Shown here one piece after another: positions 8,818 to 13,597 of a stretch of DNA of 64,000 bases; within the stretch, counting starts at the first letter, position 1; each line of letters starts with the position of its first letter. The DNA comes from Planctomycetota bacterium. GTDB lineage: Bacteria; Planctomycetota; SZUA-567; H5-PLA8. The stretch lies in NCBI GenBank assembly GCA_038227875.1, contig JBBRPR010000016.1:64001-128000 (forward strand), written 5' to 3'. Under the pieces are notes generated by a model. The model ran no database searches and was not told where the DNA came from. It saw nothing but the letters and a program-made list of their open reading frames with translations. Position numbers and translations under genes: made by a program.

Positions 8818-8922
8818 TTCCGAGTGTGATTTAATTTGATTCGATGAAAAACCGAACGTGTTTGTGAATATTCTGGGGCTGACTATCATCTCTGGCGATT
8901 ATTGCCATGGATGCGGAGCCCT

Positions 8923-9450
8923 ATGACAGAAGAGCCTATTGTCGTCGACGTTCGTCTTACACAAGCCGACTACATGCACTTCAACAAATGGCATTTTTAT
9001 AAGAGAAATCCGATCAGTAGTTTTTTGGTCGTCATGTCGTATCTCTCTATAGGTCTATTTCTCCTTGTGAATCTCTGGCCAAACCGTTGGATTCAATGCG
9101 AATTTACCCAATCCCTGTACATGCTCATTCTGCCATTCTTCTATTTGGTGTTCATTCCGTATTCGGTCGTCGCCGGATACAAAAAAATGGCAAAGTCCGA
9201 TCCCTCCCGTCTGGAAATGCATTACGAGTTTCTACCCGATTGTATTCGAGTAACGTTGCCCGCGTCCAAAGTTGAAGAGACTTGGGCAAATTATCAGAAT
9301 GTGGTCGAAACTCCGTCGCACTATTTTCTTTACCTAAGTTCGGTGCAGGCTCGCATTATCCCGAAGCGCGACCTGTCAGAGGACAAACTCGCCACTTTCC
9401 GGGAATTCATTGACCGCAACATCGACAAGACGAAACTCGTTCGCGGCTGA
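8923..9450 (+). CDS. YcxB-like membrane protein
   Basis: Two TM helices followed by W......ET..HYFLY......IIPKR. Confidence 0.8.
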   Translation: MTEEPIVVDVRLTQADYMHFNKWHFYKRNPISSFLVVMSYLSIGLFLLVNLWPNRWIQCEFTQSLYMLILPFFYLVFIPYSVVAGYKKMAKSDPSRLEMHYEFLPDCIRVTLPASKVEETWANYQNVVETPSHYFLYLSSVQARIIPKRDLSEDKLATFREFIDRNIDKTKLVRG

Positions 9451-9603
9451 ACACAGCCGCTTTAATGCGGCAGCAACTGGTCGAAGTGCCTCACGTTGTG
9501 CGCGAAATCGTGGTCGCAAATTTGCGACCACCCAAAACCAACGACCTCGCAAACCAAATATGGACTGATTCCGGCAAAGGTGTGAGCGCGGCTTGCGAAA
9601 TTC

Positions 9604-9747
9604 TCATGCCGCGCGCGCAGCCACAACCGGGCGCAGGCGTTTCTTCTCGACTCCGCAGCGCTGGCAAACTGAGGTATGGCTCGCGTCGGCGTGCTTCGTG
9701 GTCGTTTTGCAAGGGGCGCAGTAGTGGACGGTCGTTTGTGCTTTCAT
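9604..9747 (-). CDS. 47-aa zinc-ribbon microprotein A (CxxC-x14-CxxC)
   Basis: MKAQTTVHYCAPCKTTTKHADASHTSVCQRCG...; AAGGGA RBS; clear paralogue at 9983..10159. Confidence 0.8.
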   Translation of the reverse strand: MKAQTTVHYCAPCKTTTKHADASHTSVCQRCGVEKKRLRPVVAARAA

Positions 9748-9787
9748 CGGTCTTCCCTTTCTCTCGTGGGTGTAGCGTCCTGGGTTG

Positions 9788-9828
9788 AAAAAAGAAAAGG
9801 GCCGGAGGTTTCTGGCCTCCGGCCCTTT
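9788..9828 (-). terminator. Intrinsic terminator (attenuator A)
   Basis: Perfect stem AAAGGGCCGGAGG/CCTCCGGCCCTTT (9796-9808 and 9816-9828) with a U-rich tail on the minus strand, about 40 nt before the microprotein A start. Confidence 0.85.
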
Positions 9829-9857
9829 CACGCTTCTGAAAATTTCAGTTTAGCGGG

Positions 9858-9926
9858 TCAGGTCGAAGGCCTTTCAAACGAAAGATGAACGCAGCAGCGA
9901 ATGGCGGCTACGCGCTTCGAACACAT
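9858..9926 (-). CDS. Putative leader peptide A (MCSKRVAAIRCCVHLSFERPST)
   Basis: Short ORF whose last codons overlap a sequence complementary to the terminator 5' arm. Alternative in-frame ATG at 9959. Confidence 0.55.
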   Translation of the reverse strand: MCSKRVAAIRCCVHLSFERPST

Positions 9927-9982
9927 GGACCAGCTAAACAGACCTGACGTCAGATTCATCGTTGCACTCGGATTCCTTAAAC

Positions 9983-10159
9983 TCAATTCCAACGGGCGTC
10001 TTCGCTGTGTTCCTGGCTCGGGCTGGACTTCGCTACGACGCGACTGAGGTTCTTGATCGCTCCGCAGCGCAGGCACACAGAAGTCGTTTCCGACTCCGTG
10101 TGCTTGGTCGTTGCTTTACAGAGACTGCAGTAGTGAAGGCTGGTCTGTCTTCGTTTCAT
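9983..10159 (-). CDS. 58-aa zinc-ribbon microprotein B (CxxC-x14-CxxC)
   Basis: MKRRQTSLHYCSLCKATTKHTESETTSVCLRCG...; paralogue of 9604..9747. Confidence 0.8.
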   Translation of the reverse strand: MKRRQTSLHYCSLCKATTKHTESETTSVCLRCGAIKNLSRVVAKSSPSQEHSEDARWN

Positions 10160-10176
10160 GCTCAATCCCGATGGGT

Positions 10177-10216
10177 AAAACAAAAAGGGCCGGAGGTTTT
10201 TAAACCTTCGGCCCTT
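10177..10216 (-). terminator. Intrinsic terminator (attenuator B)
   Basis: mRNA stem AAGGGCCGAAGG / CCUCCGGCCCUU (one A-C mismatch) followed by UUUGUUUU, directly upstream of microprotein B. Confidence 0.82.
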
Positions 10217-10239
10217 GCACTTACGGGGTTGCTGGCAAG

Positions 10240-10347
10240 TCAGGCCGAAGATCTCTGAGTTTTCAAGTGTGCAAGACCGACAACGATCTTACGACGCATA
10301 CATCCGCAGGCGCACCAGCTCTGTGTAAGGCGACGAACCGAAGACAT
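10240..10347 (-). CDS. Putative leader peptide B (MSSVRRLTQSWCACGCMRRKIVVGLAHLKTQRSSA)
   Basis: GGAG RBS 6 nt upstream; the stop codon abuts the antiterminator CUUCGGCC. Confidence 0.6.
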   Translation of the reverse strand: MSSVRRLTQSWCACGCMRRKIVVGLAHLKTQRSSA

Positions 10348-10459
10348 GGGGCGCTCCAGAACTTCCACAGACAGTTGCACCTATCTAATTAACCCCTTTT
10401 AAGGGCTGCTGTCAAGAGGTGCGGGAAACAGAATTTTCTAAGTCTTTTGGAATCGTAAA

Positions 10460-13400
10460 TTATTTTTTGACGTCCGACACCGCCCCGTATTCGGTCTCAT
10501 CTTTCATCAGGTCCCCGCCGCCGCCGATGCCTGTTTCCACGTCGCGGACGGTCAAGTGGTAGAGACCCGCCGGTTCGTTGAGACCCAGCACAATCTGGAA
10601 TTCCTGCTGTCCTTCCGCAGCGACGAACGTCTGCGTGTACGCGGGCAGGAGCACCCCGGCGTCGTTGGTCAGCTCGGCGTGAAATAAATGCGTGCCGGGT
10701 GTGATTCCCAGCGCGGCGCTCAGCGTCGCCGTGACTTTGAAACTGCCGCGCGGGTCGATGCGGCGGAGCTTCACATTGAGGTGCTCGGCCTTGTACGGTA
10801 GCGCGGAGAGCAGTGTCGGCCGCAGCGCATCGAGCCGCGCCTTCACCGCCGCGCCGGCGCCGAGGAACTGGCCGGTCCGCATGTCGTACCAGTAACGCGT
10901 GACTTTGTCGGTCGTGCCGACCCAGACGGTCTGATCGTTGATGGCACTGCCGAAACGGCGCTGGATGCCAAAGAGCTCGTGGTCCGCGCCAAAATGGAAG
11001 CGAGCCTGATGCAGACCGCGGATCGGGACGCTCTCTTCCGACCACACTTTTAGCGGACTGCCGGAGCAGGCTTCGCCGAGCAGATCGCCGAGGACCAGGC
11101 GCAACGCTTCACCGCCGGTGGGTTTGCCGAATTGCTTTTCGTAGTCGGCGCGAGAAACGTCAAAGTAAGTGAACAGCGCCGCATCGGGAGCTTCACGCAG
11201 CGCGCCGTAATCCTGCAGCATCAGATTCAGGTAAACGAAGTGGCCCGCCCTGTTGGCTTTGGTCAGGAAGGCCGGCGCGCCCGACAGCGTCCCAGCTCCC
11301 ACGGCCGAACCCCGCGCCGCGACGCCGGGTTCCATTGCCCGCAACTCGGGCGACGAGGGACCGACGGGCTTGCGCGTCGCAGCGTCAATCAAGGTCACGC
11401 GCGCGGTGCTGGCGTCGGAGTTGGCATCATTGATGGTCAATTCTTTTCGCACGATTCCAAACTCGGCGTCGAGCGCTCCGGCGCACAGACTCTCCGCTGA
11501 GAATGTCGGGCGGCGCTTGCCGCTGCCGTCGAACAGTCCGCAGGCGCCGTCGGCGACGACCAACCCGCCGGCGCGGGCGAAAGCGCGGATCGCGACGGTT
11601 TCTTCATCGCTGAGCGAGACGACTTTGGGCAGGATCAGCACTTTCGTGTGGGAACTGGCCAGCACGCCGCTGTGCAGTTGCTGCGCGTTCAGATAAAGGG
11701 GCGAATAGCCGAGGTCTTCCAGCAGCATCGACCAGCCGCGCAAAGCGGCGAAACCCGTGTTGCTGGCCGCGTCGCGATCCATCCAATCTTGAGCGCTGGC
11801 GCGCTGGCAGTCGAGCAGCCAGTTCACCTGCAGTGAGCGCGGAGAATAGTAGAGCGCGACGGCATCGCGGACGGGCGTGGCGGCTTGGCGCAACTGCGTG
11901 ATGCCGCTGCTGAGCGCGCGGAAATCGGCGGCGAGCGCCTTGGTCGCGGGAAGCGTCTCTTGCTTGTCGTCGACGAGTGCGCGGGCATCGGCAATGCAGC
12001 CGTTGTCGCCGCGCAGCCAGCGGTCCCAGAGCTGATGAACATCCGCCGGATGGTGGCCGCCCAGCGCCGAGAGCCAGTGCATCGACGGCGCAAAGTTGCG
12101 GAGCAATTCGCGGCTGTACGCGTCGTCGTGTTCTTCAGCCCAATCGAGCACCTTGCTCAGCTGTGCGGCGTCCCAACCATTAAAGGGGGAGGGCGCAGCC
12201 AGTCCCGTTAGGCCGGCGCGGACTTCGTAGGGCGAATTGGCGCCGTGCTGCAGTTGCGCTTTGAATTCCCGCAGCATGCGCGTGAAGGCAAAATCATTAA
12301 ACGAGCGGAAGTCGCTCCACGCGGCGAAATTATCGTTGGCATCGTTGACCAGCACCGGCCGCGCACTGACGGGTTCGGGCACCAGGCTGAAACTGGTCTT
12401 CGGCTTGTCGGTCAGCAGCACTTGATCAGTGGTCGGCGGATGGACCTGATCCCACTTGGCAAAGTTCGAGCCCCATTCGCGGTTGAGCGCCGGGAGCGTG
12501 TGGTAGCGCCGCTGCAGCCACGCGCGGAAAACGTCGAGCGTGCCCGGCGCCATGCTGCCGTCGAAGGGTGCGTTACGGTTGGGTGACAGCGACAAGGCAT
12601 CGCCCAGCGACCAGCCCAGCGGCTGAAAGCCGCGCTTGGCCGTCAGGCCCGCGTCGATGTGTTCGGACATCTGCGCCACGGCGGCGTCATCAAACAACGA
12701 GAGCCCGCGCTGCAGCGCCGCGGCATCGCGCGATTTGCGGTACTGAAGGTAGGTCTGCTCCAGCGACTTTCCGGCCTTGAGCAGATTCTCGTCCGGCGCG
12801 ATCAGTTCACTGAAAAACGGCAGCGCCTGGCGCGTGTAGGTCGTCGGCGCATCGCTGGAGTCGCTCGCGCCGCCGGAGATGCCCAGCTCGCGGAGCTTCT
12901 GCCAGGCCTTGGGCGTGAGGAATTCGCCGCCGCGCAACGCGACGACGTACTCGTCCCACGGCTGCGGCGCATGGACCTGGAAACGGGTCTGCGCCACGAT
13001 GGCGGCGGGAATCGGCGCTTCGGTATCGTTCTGGCGCGGCGTGATGCGCACGACCACGAGGCGATGCAGCTGCCCGACGCAATGGTCCGGCATGGTGATG
13101 CTGAAGGCGATCGGTTCGCCGGGAGTTGCTTTGAAGGCGTCGACATTGTATTCGCCCATCACGCGCTGCGCGCCGTCGACCCAGAGCAGCTTCAAGCGCT
13201 CGGCGGGGGTCGTCGTGGCGAGCGTGCCTTCCAGCGGCGACTTGGCGTCGATCTCCAGCCGCGTCAGGTGCAGGGTGTAGGTCGCGTCTTCTTTTTTCGA
13301 CGTGACTTCGACGCGTTCGGGATGGATCGGAAGTTCGGAGCGGTCGACAAATTCAGCGCCGGAAGATGAAGATGATGTCAGCGCGGGCGCGGTGTAGTCA

Positions 13401-13597
13401 ACGTCGAGCGGCTTCTCTTCGGCCATCTTGCGCAGCGAGGCCACGTCGCTCTGCCCGACATGCGCCGCATGATCGCGTGACGACGCGTGGTCGTGCGACG
13501 TGTTCGTCGCGCAACCGGCGCAGAGCGTCAGCGCGGCCACGGCCAAAACACGGCGGCGGCTCCGGCGAGCAAAAAGTGGCTTGGGGCTAATTGGCAT
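10460..13597 (-). CDS. Lipoprotein with GH42-like (beta-galactosidase) TIM barrel and trimerization domain
   Basis: Lipobox LCAG-C; FRAWL..RY.TL.ALNREWG..F..WDQV; VALYYS; KVLILP....LSDEE..AIRAFARAGGLVVAD. Confidence 0.75.
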   Translation of the reverse strand: MPISPKPLFARRSRRRVLAVAALTLCAGCATNTSHDHASSRDHAAHVGQSDVASLRKMAEEKPLDVDYTAPALTSSSSSGAEFVDRSELPIHPERVEVTSKKEDATYTLHLTRLEIDAKSPLEGTLATTTPAERLKLLWVDGAQRVMGEYNVDAFKATPGEPIAFSITMPDHCVGQLHRLVVVRITPRQNDTEAPIPAAIVAQTRFQVHAPQPWDEYVVALRGGEFLTPKAWQKLRELGISGGASDSSDAPTTYTRQALPFFSELIAPDENLLKAGKSLEQTYLQYRKSRDAAALQRGLSLFDDAAVAQMSEHIDAGLTAKRGFQPLGWSLGDALSLSPNRNAPFDGSMAPGTLDVFRAWLQRRYHTLPALNREWGSNFAKWDQVHPPTTDQVLLTDKPKTSFSLVPEPVSARPVLVNDANDNFAAWSDFRSFNDFAFTRMLREFKAQLQHGANSPYEVRAGLTGLAAPSPFNGWDAAQLSKVLDWAEEHDDAYSRELLRNFAPSMHWLSALGGHHPADVHQLWDRWLRGDNGCIADARALVDDKQETLPATKALAADFRALSSGITQLRQAATPVRDAVALYYSPRSLQVNWLLDCQRASAQDWMDRDAASNTGFAALRGWSMLLEDLGYSPLYLNAQQLHSGVLASSHTKVLILPKVVSLSDEETVAIRAFARAGGLVVADGACGLFDGSGKRRPTFSAESLCAGALDAEFGIVRKELTINDANSDASTARVTLIDAATRKPVGPSSPELRAMEPGVAARGSAVGAGTLSGAPAFLTKANRAGHFVYLNLMLQDYGALREAPDAALFTYFDVSRADYEKQFGKPTGGEALRLVLGDLLGEACSGSPLKVWSEESVPIRGLHQARFHFGADHELFGIQRRFGSAINDQTVWVGTTDKVTRYWYDMRTGQFLGAGAAVKARLDALRPTLLSALPYKAEHLNVKLRRIDPRGSFKVTATLSAALGITPGTHLFHAELTNDAGVLLPAYTQTFVAAEGQQEFQIVLGLNEPAGLYHLTVRDVETGIGGGGDLMKDETEYGAVSDVKK

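Follow-up and report, generated by a model that had tools for sequence, protein, structure and literature searches.

Classical leader-peptide attenuators serve the amino-acid operons (trp, his, leu, ilv and phe) of Proteobacteria, Firmicutes and Actinobacteria. Comparative papers on these amino-acid attenuators are available (PMC1262725, PMC3082878). In Firmicutes, attenuators that respond to antibiotics by ribosome stalling control ABC-F resistance factors, as for vmlR (PMC9226507) and msrD (bioRxiv 10.1101/2021.11.29.470318). The closest published analogue that we found for the locus described here is the attenuation of a small DUF1127 gene in Sinorhizobium by an upstream open reading frame (uORF). 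At duf1127-1 of Sinorhizobium meliloti (Kothe et al., RNA Biol 2025, PMC12218461), translation of the uORF allows premature termination, and impaired or delayed translation or a shortage of ribosomes relieves it. Termination is Rho-dependent there, with a split rut-like element at uORF codons 3-10, and the system was tested experimentally. The locus considered here lies in a 64,000-nucleotide (nt) stretch of DNA from a Planctomycetota bacterium (assembly GCA_038227875.1, contig JBBRPR010000016.1, positions 64,001 to 128,000; hereafter the window). Its minus strand carries two paralogous modules, A and B, each composed of a leader open reading frame (ORF), a pre-stop element, an intrinsic terminator and a gene for a CxxC-x14-CxxC microprotein.

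We propose that each module is probably a ribosome-dependent attenuator that gates its microprotein gene. Translation of the leader up to its stop codon would lead to termination, and a lagging ribosome would allow read-through. The parts of the two modules, in window coordinates, are as follows.

10387..10415, minus strand: promoter-like site of module A, by direct reading; TTGACA at 10415-10410, a 17-nt spacer and TTAATT at 10392-10387
10240..10347, minus strand: leader ORF A; 35 codons plus UGA, with GGAG 6 nt 5' of the ATG
10243..10251, minus strand: predicted antiterminator strand A, UCUUCGGCC; directly 5' of the UGA at 10242-10240
10177..10216 (about), minus strand: intrinsic terminator A; stem with one A·C mismatch, then a U-tract; free energy (ΔG) -20.1
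9983..10159, minus strand: microprotein A; 58 amino acids (aa), CxxC-x14-CxxC, C-terminal Trp-Asn; starts 17 nt past the terminator U-tract
9858..9926, minus strand: leader ORF B; 22 codons plus UGA; an alternative in-frame ATG at 9959 gives 33 codons
9861..9869, minus strand: predicted antiterminator strand B, CCUUCGACC; directly 5' of the UGA at 9860-9858
9785..9829, minus strand: intrinsic terminator B, from a terminator scan; 14-bp perfect stem plus U-tract; ΔG about -27
9604..9747, minus strand: microprotein B; 47 aa, paralogue of A

A preliminary description of this DNA had reported the two minus-strand modules, and its coordinates and motifs all proved correct, including the TTGACA at 10410-10415, to which we add the 17-nt spacer and TTAATT. 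The same architecture recurs in 10 further modules, so it is more than chance. The geometry of leader ORF, antiterminator strand before UGA, intrinsic terminator and microprotein gene is real and is conserved across six genera and on metagenome contigs. The preliminary description had also stated that no enzyme follows, and this holds well beyond the window. All 12 modules are tied to zinc-ribbon microproteins, and here a convergent YcxB-like gene comes next.

The modules resemble duf1127-1 in that a uORF lies in the 5' leader before a gene for a small basic protein, and the leader would report ribosome availability or translation efficiency. The C-rich stretch of the duf1127-1 uORF can pair with its own ribosome-binding site. 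The pre-stop element of the modules, here called region 2, is predicted to do likewise, its partner in leader-alone folds being the 5' untranslated region (UTR) and Shine-Dalgarno region of its own leader in 8-9 of the 12 modules. Unlike duf1127-1, which uses Rho, the modules have a strong intrinsic terminator and an antiterminator strand at the uORF end. They also differ in phylum, in encoding a zinc ribbon and not DUF1127, in forming tandem units and in being known from sequence alone. With the classical attenuators they share the short leader ORF, the intrinsic terminator and an alternative hairpin that shares a strand with it, such that a ribosome at the stop would mask the antitermination strand. 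Unlike those systems, the modules have no run of cognate codons, the downstream genes are not biosynthetic, and the leader peptides are unrelated between genera. In vmlR and msrD, too, a leader ORF is followed by an intrinsic terminator, a stalled ribosome favors read-through, and translation inhibition is sensed and not a metabolite. Those attenuators, however, need a specific drug and nascent-peptide arrest. The modules share no arrest motif beyond the Pro/Ser-rich end dictated by region 2, and their product is a zinc ribbon of 47-65 aa. Our literature searches, which paired Planctomycetes with attenuation, leader peptides, uORFs, small proteins or zinc ribbons, yielded no description of the element. 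One paper on Planctomycetes and leader genes concerns reinitiation distances (PMC4833913). The preliminary description had not recognized the arrangement as a described system, and this agrees with our search. Its reading of the architecture is right, as is the novelty for a zinc-ribbon cargo, all of this on computational grounds.

The spread of the module was examined with a covariance model built from module B alone and then rebuilt from six matches. The models were run over 17 genomes of the same family, 62 of the class and 151 of the phylum. The total is 12 modules: eight in 7 of the 17 family genomes, and four further distinct ones on metagenome contigs (L082-L085; L086 repeats L009, and L080 is cut at its contig end). 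The genomes that carry it are G000, where the two modules of the window are the only ones, G001 (L009), G004 (L057), G006 (L032), G008 (L007), G012 (L031) and G014 (L060), and together they span six genera. The region of terminator A scored 67 bits with the covariance model. In the class and phylum samples, genomes of other families yielded no true module. Every module lies directly 5' of a CxxC-x14-CxxC microprotein gene, of type 1 in eight cases and of type 2 in four (L031, L032, L057 and L060). All four strong type-2 copies in the family have the module. Leaders A and B align with a mean column identity of 67%, with the pre-stop element and the terminator kept. A short stretch near the predicted transcript start is common to both, and the promoter is not. 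Outside region 2 and the terminator, the leader RNA is poorly conserved. A scan of 9000-11000 against Rfam (E-values up to 10) gave no family at gathering score; the best match, BjrC68, reached 26.5 bits versus 39 and lay mainly on the terminator.

Weaker matches of the covariance model were judged by their context, which was read for those of full length; matches to the terminator part only and a few low-scoring ones were left out. L033, L035, L037, L039, L041, L043, L044, L046, L048, L056, L058, L059, L061, L071, L072 and L073 are ordinary terminators at gene or transfer RNA (tRNA) ends and not modules. The same applies to matches on contigs C29, C81 and C8 of G000 and to L100-L104 of the phylum sample.

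The leader ORFs are frame-specific. For leader A, the frame with the conserved UGA at its end has 46 open codons with an ATG among them, and neither of the other frames has an ATG. In 12/12 modules the UGA-ending frame has at least 41 open codons and an ATG within them; by the same measure, frame +1 scores 0/12 and frame +2 scores 3/12 (3/24 together). The ORFs are 22-44 codons long. Their stop is UGA in all 12 modules and always lies directly 3' of a conserved 9-mer, CCUYCGRCC, and the distance from stop codon to terminator end is 62-73 nt throughout. GGAG is found 6-8 nt 5' of the ATG in module A, L009, L031 and L032, and most of the others have purine-rich stretches. The leader peptides show no similarity between genera except in the last few residues. 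Variation in region 2 is mostly C/U opposite G, which keeps the pairing and switches the amino acid among Ser, Pro and Leu. This is what selection on the RNA and not on the peptide would be expected to give. The whole pattern fits an ORF whose translation matters and whose product does not, and from it we infer that the leaders are translated.

The terminators of the 12 modules have ΔG values of -19 to -32 and are followed by U-tracts. Their covariation was assessed on the 13-row model alignment, in which one row is antisense: 95% of cells are paired, six pairs are changed on both sides, and 0/500 shuffles reach the score. Leader B folds with z = -3.75 relative to shuffles. The alternative pairing was assessed in local folds running from 25 nt before the stop through the end of the terminator loop, with the terminator 3' arm left out. 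Antiterminator strand A pairs 9/9 with the terminator 5' arm (hairpin ΔG -24.4) and strand B 8/9 (ΔG -28.6). Over the set, each of the 12 local folds pairs the terminator 5' arm with 7-9 of the nine nucleotides that precede UGA. The antiterminator hairpins have ΔG values of -24 to -36, a stability equal to or above that of the terminators. In the alignment of the 12 modules, 93% of antiterminator cells are paired, versus 28-62% when the partner is slid by 1-3 columns. Support for the antiterminator is conserved complementarity and not covariation. The two hairpins are predicted to be mutually exclusive.

In module A and L084, a weak position of the terminator stem (A·C or G·U) is a Watson-Crick pair in the antiterminator, a further detail in favor of selection on the RNA. 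The preliminary description had assigned this feature, a mismatch in the terminator that becomes perfect in the antiterminator, to module B. It belongs to the upstream module (10250-10177); in module B the terminator is perfect and the antiterminator has one A·C mismatch.

The distance from the terminator U-tract to the microprotein ATG is 17 nt in module A and L084, 29 in L060, 34 in L057, 40 in module B, and 50 in L031 and L032. In these 7 of the 12 modules the gap of 17-50 nt is too short for a separate promoter and ribosome-binding site. TTGACA-N17-TTnnnT was seen by eye, and not computed, upstream of the leader in L007, L009, L031, L032, L060, L082, L083, L084 and L085. The site of module A was missed by a consensus scan because its second hexamer has no A at position 2. 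No TTGACA promoter was seen upstream of leader ORF B. Since module B has no promoter of its own in the window, the attenuators are probably in series, as had been suggested, and microprotein B would need read-through of both terminators. One contig from a metatranscriptome library covers exactly 10210-10342 with 100% identity and has adapters at both ends; three DNA runs cover parts neighboring this interval. These data are assembled contigs, in which uncovered parts are uninformative. The contig is a weak hint at an abundant short leader RNA and no proof of transcription or of an RNA end.

About 20 nt are conserved between L083 and L085 within the spacer that follows the terminator (a spacer of 122 nt in L083 and at least 68 nt in L085). 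This stretch could act as a promoter or as a second control element.

A plausible four-strand logic (1:2, 2:3, 3:4) can be proposed for the switch. Transcription would start at the TTGACA-N17-TTAATT promoter in module A, and a ribosome would translate the short leader ORF. Region 2, the last 9 nt of the ORF (CCUYCGRCC), is complementary to the terminator 5' arm, region 3. A ribosome that follows RNA polymerase closely and occupies the UGA would cover region 2, so that the terminator 3:4 forms and a short leader RNA results. Should the ribosome lag, stall further upstream or be held at initiation, 2:3 would pair, no terminator would form, and polymerase would read through into the microprotein gene. 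With no ribosome engaged, region 2 could pair with the leader 5' UTR and Shine-Dalgarno sequence (1:2), 3:4 would form, and transcription would terminate. In leader-alone folds the 9-mer is predicted to be paired already, with a mean probability of 0.46-0.96. Given read-through when the ribosome lags, the signal is most likely general translation progress (ribosome availability, inhibitors or charged-tRNA supply) and not one amino acid. We also considered sensing of elongation factor P or release factor 2 at the Pro-rich end and UGA, and rejected it. A ribosome paused there would still cover the 9-mer, and the result would be termination and not induction.

Several observations weigh against the ribosome-dependent reading. 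The antiterminator does not show covariation: one cell has a compensatory change, and 195/500 column shuffles reach the same percentage of pairing, because the antiterminator columns are so conserved. Among the eight modules tested, the duplex between leader and terminator arm is clearly above mononucleotide shuffles only in module A (best duplex -19.8 kcal/mol; 0.6% of 500 shuffles as good) and L007 (1.4%). The values for L031 and L032 (about 5%) and for L009 (10%) are marginal, and those for module B, L057 and L060 (50-66%) are no better than chance. In the nascent fold of the whole leader of module B, the partner of region 2 is the start of the leader, in place of the terminator arm. The mutually exclusive hairpins that the preliminary description expected on folding thus appear in the local folds, and the full nascent fold of module B departs from them. 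Likewise, the co-occurrence of uORF and terminator that it proposed to look for holds in 12 modules with covariation in the terminator, and in the antiterminator it comes down to that single compensatory change. L007, L009, L082 and L083 have a gap of 81-135 nt, which leaves room for a second promoter, and the gap of L009 holds a motif that also occurs 5' of the leaderless genes L011, L012, L016 and L018. A microprotein promoter downstream of the terminator, which had been named as evidence against the switch, would find no room in 7/12 modules and has room in these four. Homologues without the upstream ORF and antiterminator had been named in the same way, and they exist: L003, L008, L011, L012, L016, L018 and the whole 'HPYENRYC' subfamily have no leader, whereas the 12 modules keep it. 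With so many leaderless homologues, the module is an accessory control in some lineages and not an obligate part of the gene. In L081, a relative with 67% protein identity on a metagenome contig (locus about 700-900), promoter and terminator are still present, and the leader ORF and pre-stop element are gone. This looks like a deletion that left the promoter firing straight into a terminator. The modules are also homologous to one another, so the counts given here are not independent events. Finally, there are no conserved control codons among the 12 leaders.

The wide gaps and L081, with its promoter and terminator and no ORF, also speak for a different explanation, which we think unlikely. 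The leader would be an independent small gene, giving a short RNA or a tiny-peptide mRNA that acts in trans. The microprotein would be made by leaky read-through or from its own promoter, and the pre-stop complementarity would be a by-product of a reused terminator. Because the terminators are strong, most of the product should be leader RNA, and the leader is all that one RNA-library contig covers. A trans-acting attenuator RNA has been published for the Sinorhizobium trp leader (PMC7968998). However, the peptides are unconserved outside the residues that region 2 encodes, which argues against a functional peptide, and the poor conservation of the RNA outside region 2 and the terminator argues against a structured trans-acting RNA. 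In 12/12 modules the leader lies immediately 5' of a zinc-ribbon microprotein gene on the same strand, and 7/12 have no room for a separate promoter. Region 2 is always followed directly by the stop, an arrangement for which a plain small-RNA gene would have no use. That last fact, together with the frame-specific ATG ORF in 12/12 modules, would also be left unexplained if a protein or small ligand on the leader RNA, such as the microprotein in feedback or a metal, set the switch and the ORF were incidental. No Rfam family reaches gathering score, and the leader 5' of region 2 varies in length and sequence, with no conserved aptamer-like core visible. We consider such a switch quite improbable, even though the alternative hairpins exist regardless of leader translation. 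The basic zinc-ribbon products could bind RNA (the type-2 proteins are Arg-rich, and there is a weak sub-threshold match to an RNA-binding family), and the Bacillus rplJL leader is a known case in which a gene product autoregulates by attenuation (PMC4538822).

The codon content of the leaders bears on one more explanation, a classical cysteine attenuator in which stalling at Cys codons during scarcity of Cys-tRNA turns on the Cys-rich microproteins. Striking Cys runs do occur (CCC in L085, CC in module B, C-A-C-G-C in module A and C-S-L-C in L009), and Cys-responsive attenuation by polycysteine short ORFs has been published for mycobacteria (bioRxiv 10.1101/834739). Yet four leaders have no Cys codon (L031, L032, L057 and L084) and three have one each (L007, L082 and L060). 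UGY triplets are no more frequent in frame than outside it, with 16/247 in frame against 21/239 in frame +1 and 6/239 in frame +2. The Cys codons are not frame-specific and thus reflect base composition. It would also make little sense to induce a four-cysteine protein during cysteine shortage. This explanation is very hard to sustain, and a strict sensor of the trp/his type is rejected. The trp/his/ilv-type label of the preliminary description thus applies to the geometry and not in the strict sense, there being no control-codon run, no frame enrichment of UGY and no biosynthetic cargo. The ribosome-dependent attenuator, with general translation progress as its signal, is the reading that we carry forward.

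The cargo is a small protein of 47-65 aa in the module-linked cases. Microproteins A and B are 55% identical over 38 residues. The microprotein family occurs in 13 of 16 other genomes of the same bacterial family, and none of the 44 class-sample genomes from other families has it. Database names for its members are only 'hypothetical protein [Planctomycetota bacterium]'. The four Cys are invariant in 23 sequences, and the invariant positions are Tyr-Cys, Cys, Thr, His, Cys and Cys-Gly. In an AlphaFold model of microprotein A, strands are placed at residues 6-11, 16-21, 26-28 and 35-37, with a mean predicted local distance difference test (pLDDT) score of 68.6; residues 11-40 score 78-85 and the tail is disordered. 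The CxxC-x14-CxxC spacing and the four short beta strands of the model are like those of small zinc-ribbon proteins in general. The predicted fold is a zinc ribbon with two CxxC knuckles, for which metal binding is predicted. Metagenome orthologues of microprotein A (65-97% identity) keep the C-terminal Trp-Asn, and the 15 residues before it vary freely. Conserved at the end of a disordered tail, this dipeptide may serve as a docking signal. Proteins of type 2 are rich in Arg and have the Cys spacing of type 1. Comparison of the two types with hhalign gave a probability of 24% over 37 columns with the same Cys spacing, so homology is not shown by it.

The microproteins matched no known family. 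There was no Pfam or NCBIfam family at cut-off, and the sub-threshold NCBIfam match, 'putative Zn-ribbon RNA-binding protein', had an E-value of 0.011 and 15.7 bits versus a cut-off of 61. The best hit of a profile search of the PDB was eL42 (E-value 0.023, 17.7 bits, 17 residues), which is not significant. Foldseek against the PDB gave a best E-value of 0.5, and the nearest clusters in the ESM Atlas are unnamed. Named small zinc-ribbon families (ribosomal eL42, L33, DksA/TraR and others) showed no significant similarity in sequence or fold. We conjecture from the small size, basic charge and zinc ribbon that the proteins bind nucleic acid or a large machine.

A leaderless subfamily in genus g10 (L011, L012, L016 and L018, in G009, G015, G016 and G013) also ends in Trp-Asn. 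Its gene lies directly 3' of an ABC-transporter ATPase gene, with a conserved A/T-rich motif before the ribosome-binding site. It is followed by a gene whose N-terminus we take to be TetR-like. The L012 copy has a His-rich tail that hints at a metal link. A single-protein scan of genome contigs with microprotein A gave one locus, L054, on a 2.6-kilobase contig labelled Thermoanaerobaculia (from a metagenome-assembled genome labelled Acidobacteriota). It may be a binning error or a sign of wider distribution of the microprotein; a search for region 2 revealed no leader module on this contig.

Two neighboring genes frame the modules.

10460-13597, minus strand: protein of 1045 aa with a weak match to GH42 beta-galactosidase; it ends at 10460 and precedes module A
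8902-9450, plus strand: YcxB-like gene, convergent, which bounds the region

The GH42 match of the 1045-aa protein is short (E-value 7e-6), and its N-terminus is signal-peptide-like. A GH42-like gene is also found 5' of the module in L081, and the synteny is kept among close relatives. In L007 (G008:C23), runs of a 7-nt tandem repeat lie at about locus positions 1020-1050, 1370-1410 and 1760-1810. The repeats are GGTGAGT-like and, downstream, GGTCATT-like, and they flank the leader, the terminator and the microprotein gene. At L046 (G000:C25:20522-23603; match at C25:22022-22113, minus strand), an unrelated ORF of 60 codons combines the promoter form TTGACA-N17-TTAGTT with a good Shine-Dalgarno sequence and a strong terminator, and a tRNA-like sequence lies about 200 nt downstream. 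TTGACA-N17-TTnnnT may be a general promoter shape of this bacterial family.

The modules make up a conserved family of probable attenuators, confined to a single bacterial family. Control codons are absent from it, a tiny zinc-ribbon protein is the sole cargo, and here it occurs twice in series. As a speculation to which we attach little confidence, the modules might form a dedicated translation-surveillance circuit. Its leader ORF would gauge how closely ribosomes follow RNA polymerase, and faltering translation would open the attenuator and free small basic zinc-ribbon proteins, whose targets would be the ribosome or RNA polymerase and whose effect would be to reset translation or transcription. 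With two units in tandem, the response might be graded over two thresholds, A first and B only under stronger stress. If the proposed mechanism holds, the module would be a compact, naturally occurring sensor of translation-transcription coupling, and two uncharacterized microprotein families would be flagged as probable translation-stress responders. The function of these microproteins becomes a testable question: when the switch opens, and what the proteins bind.

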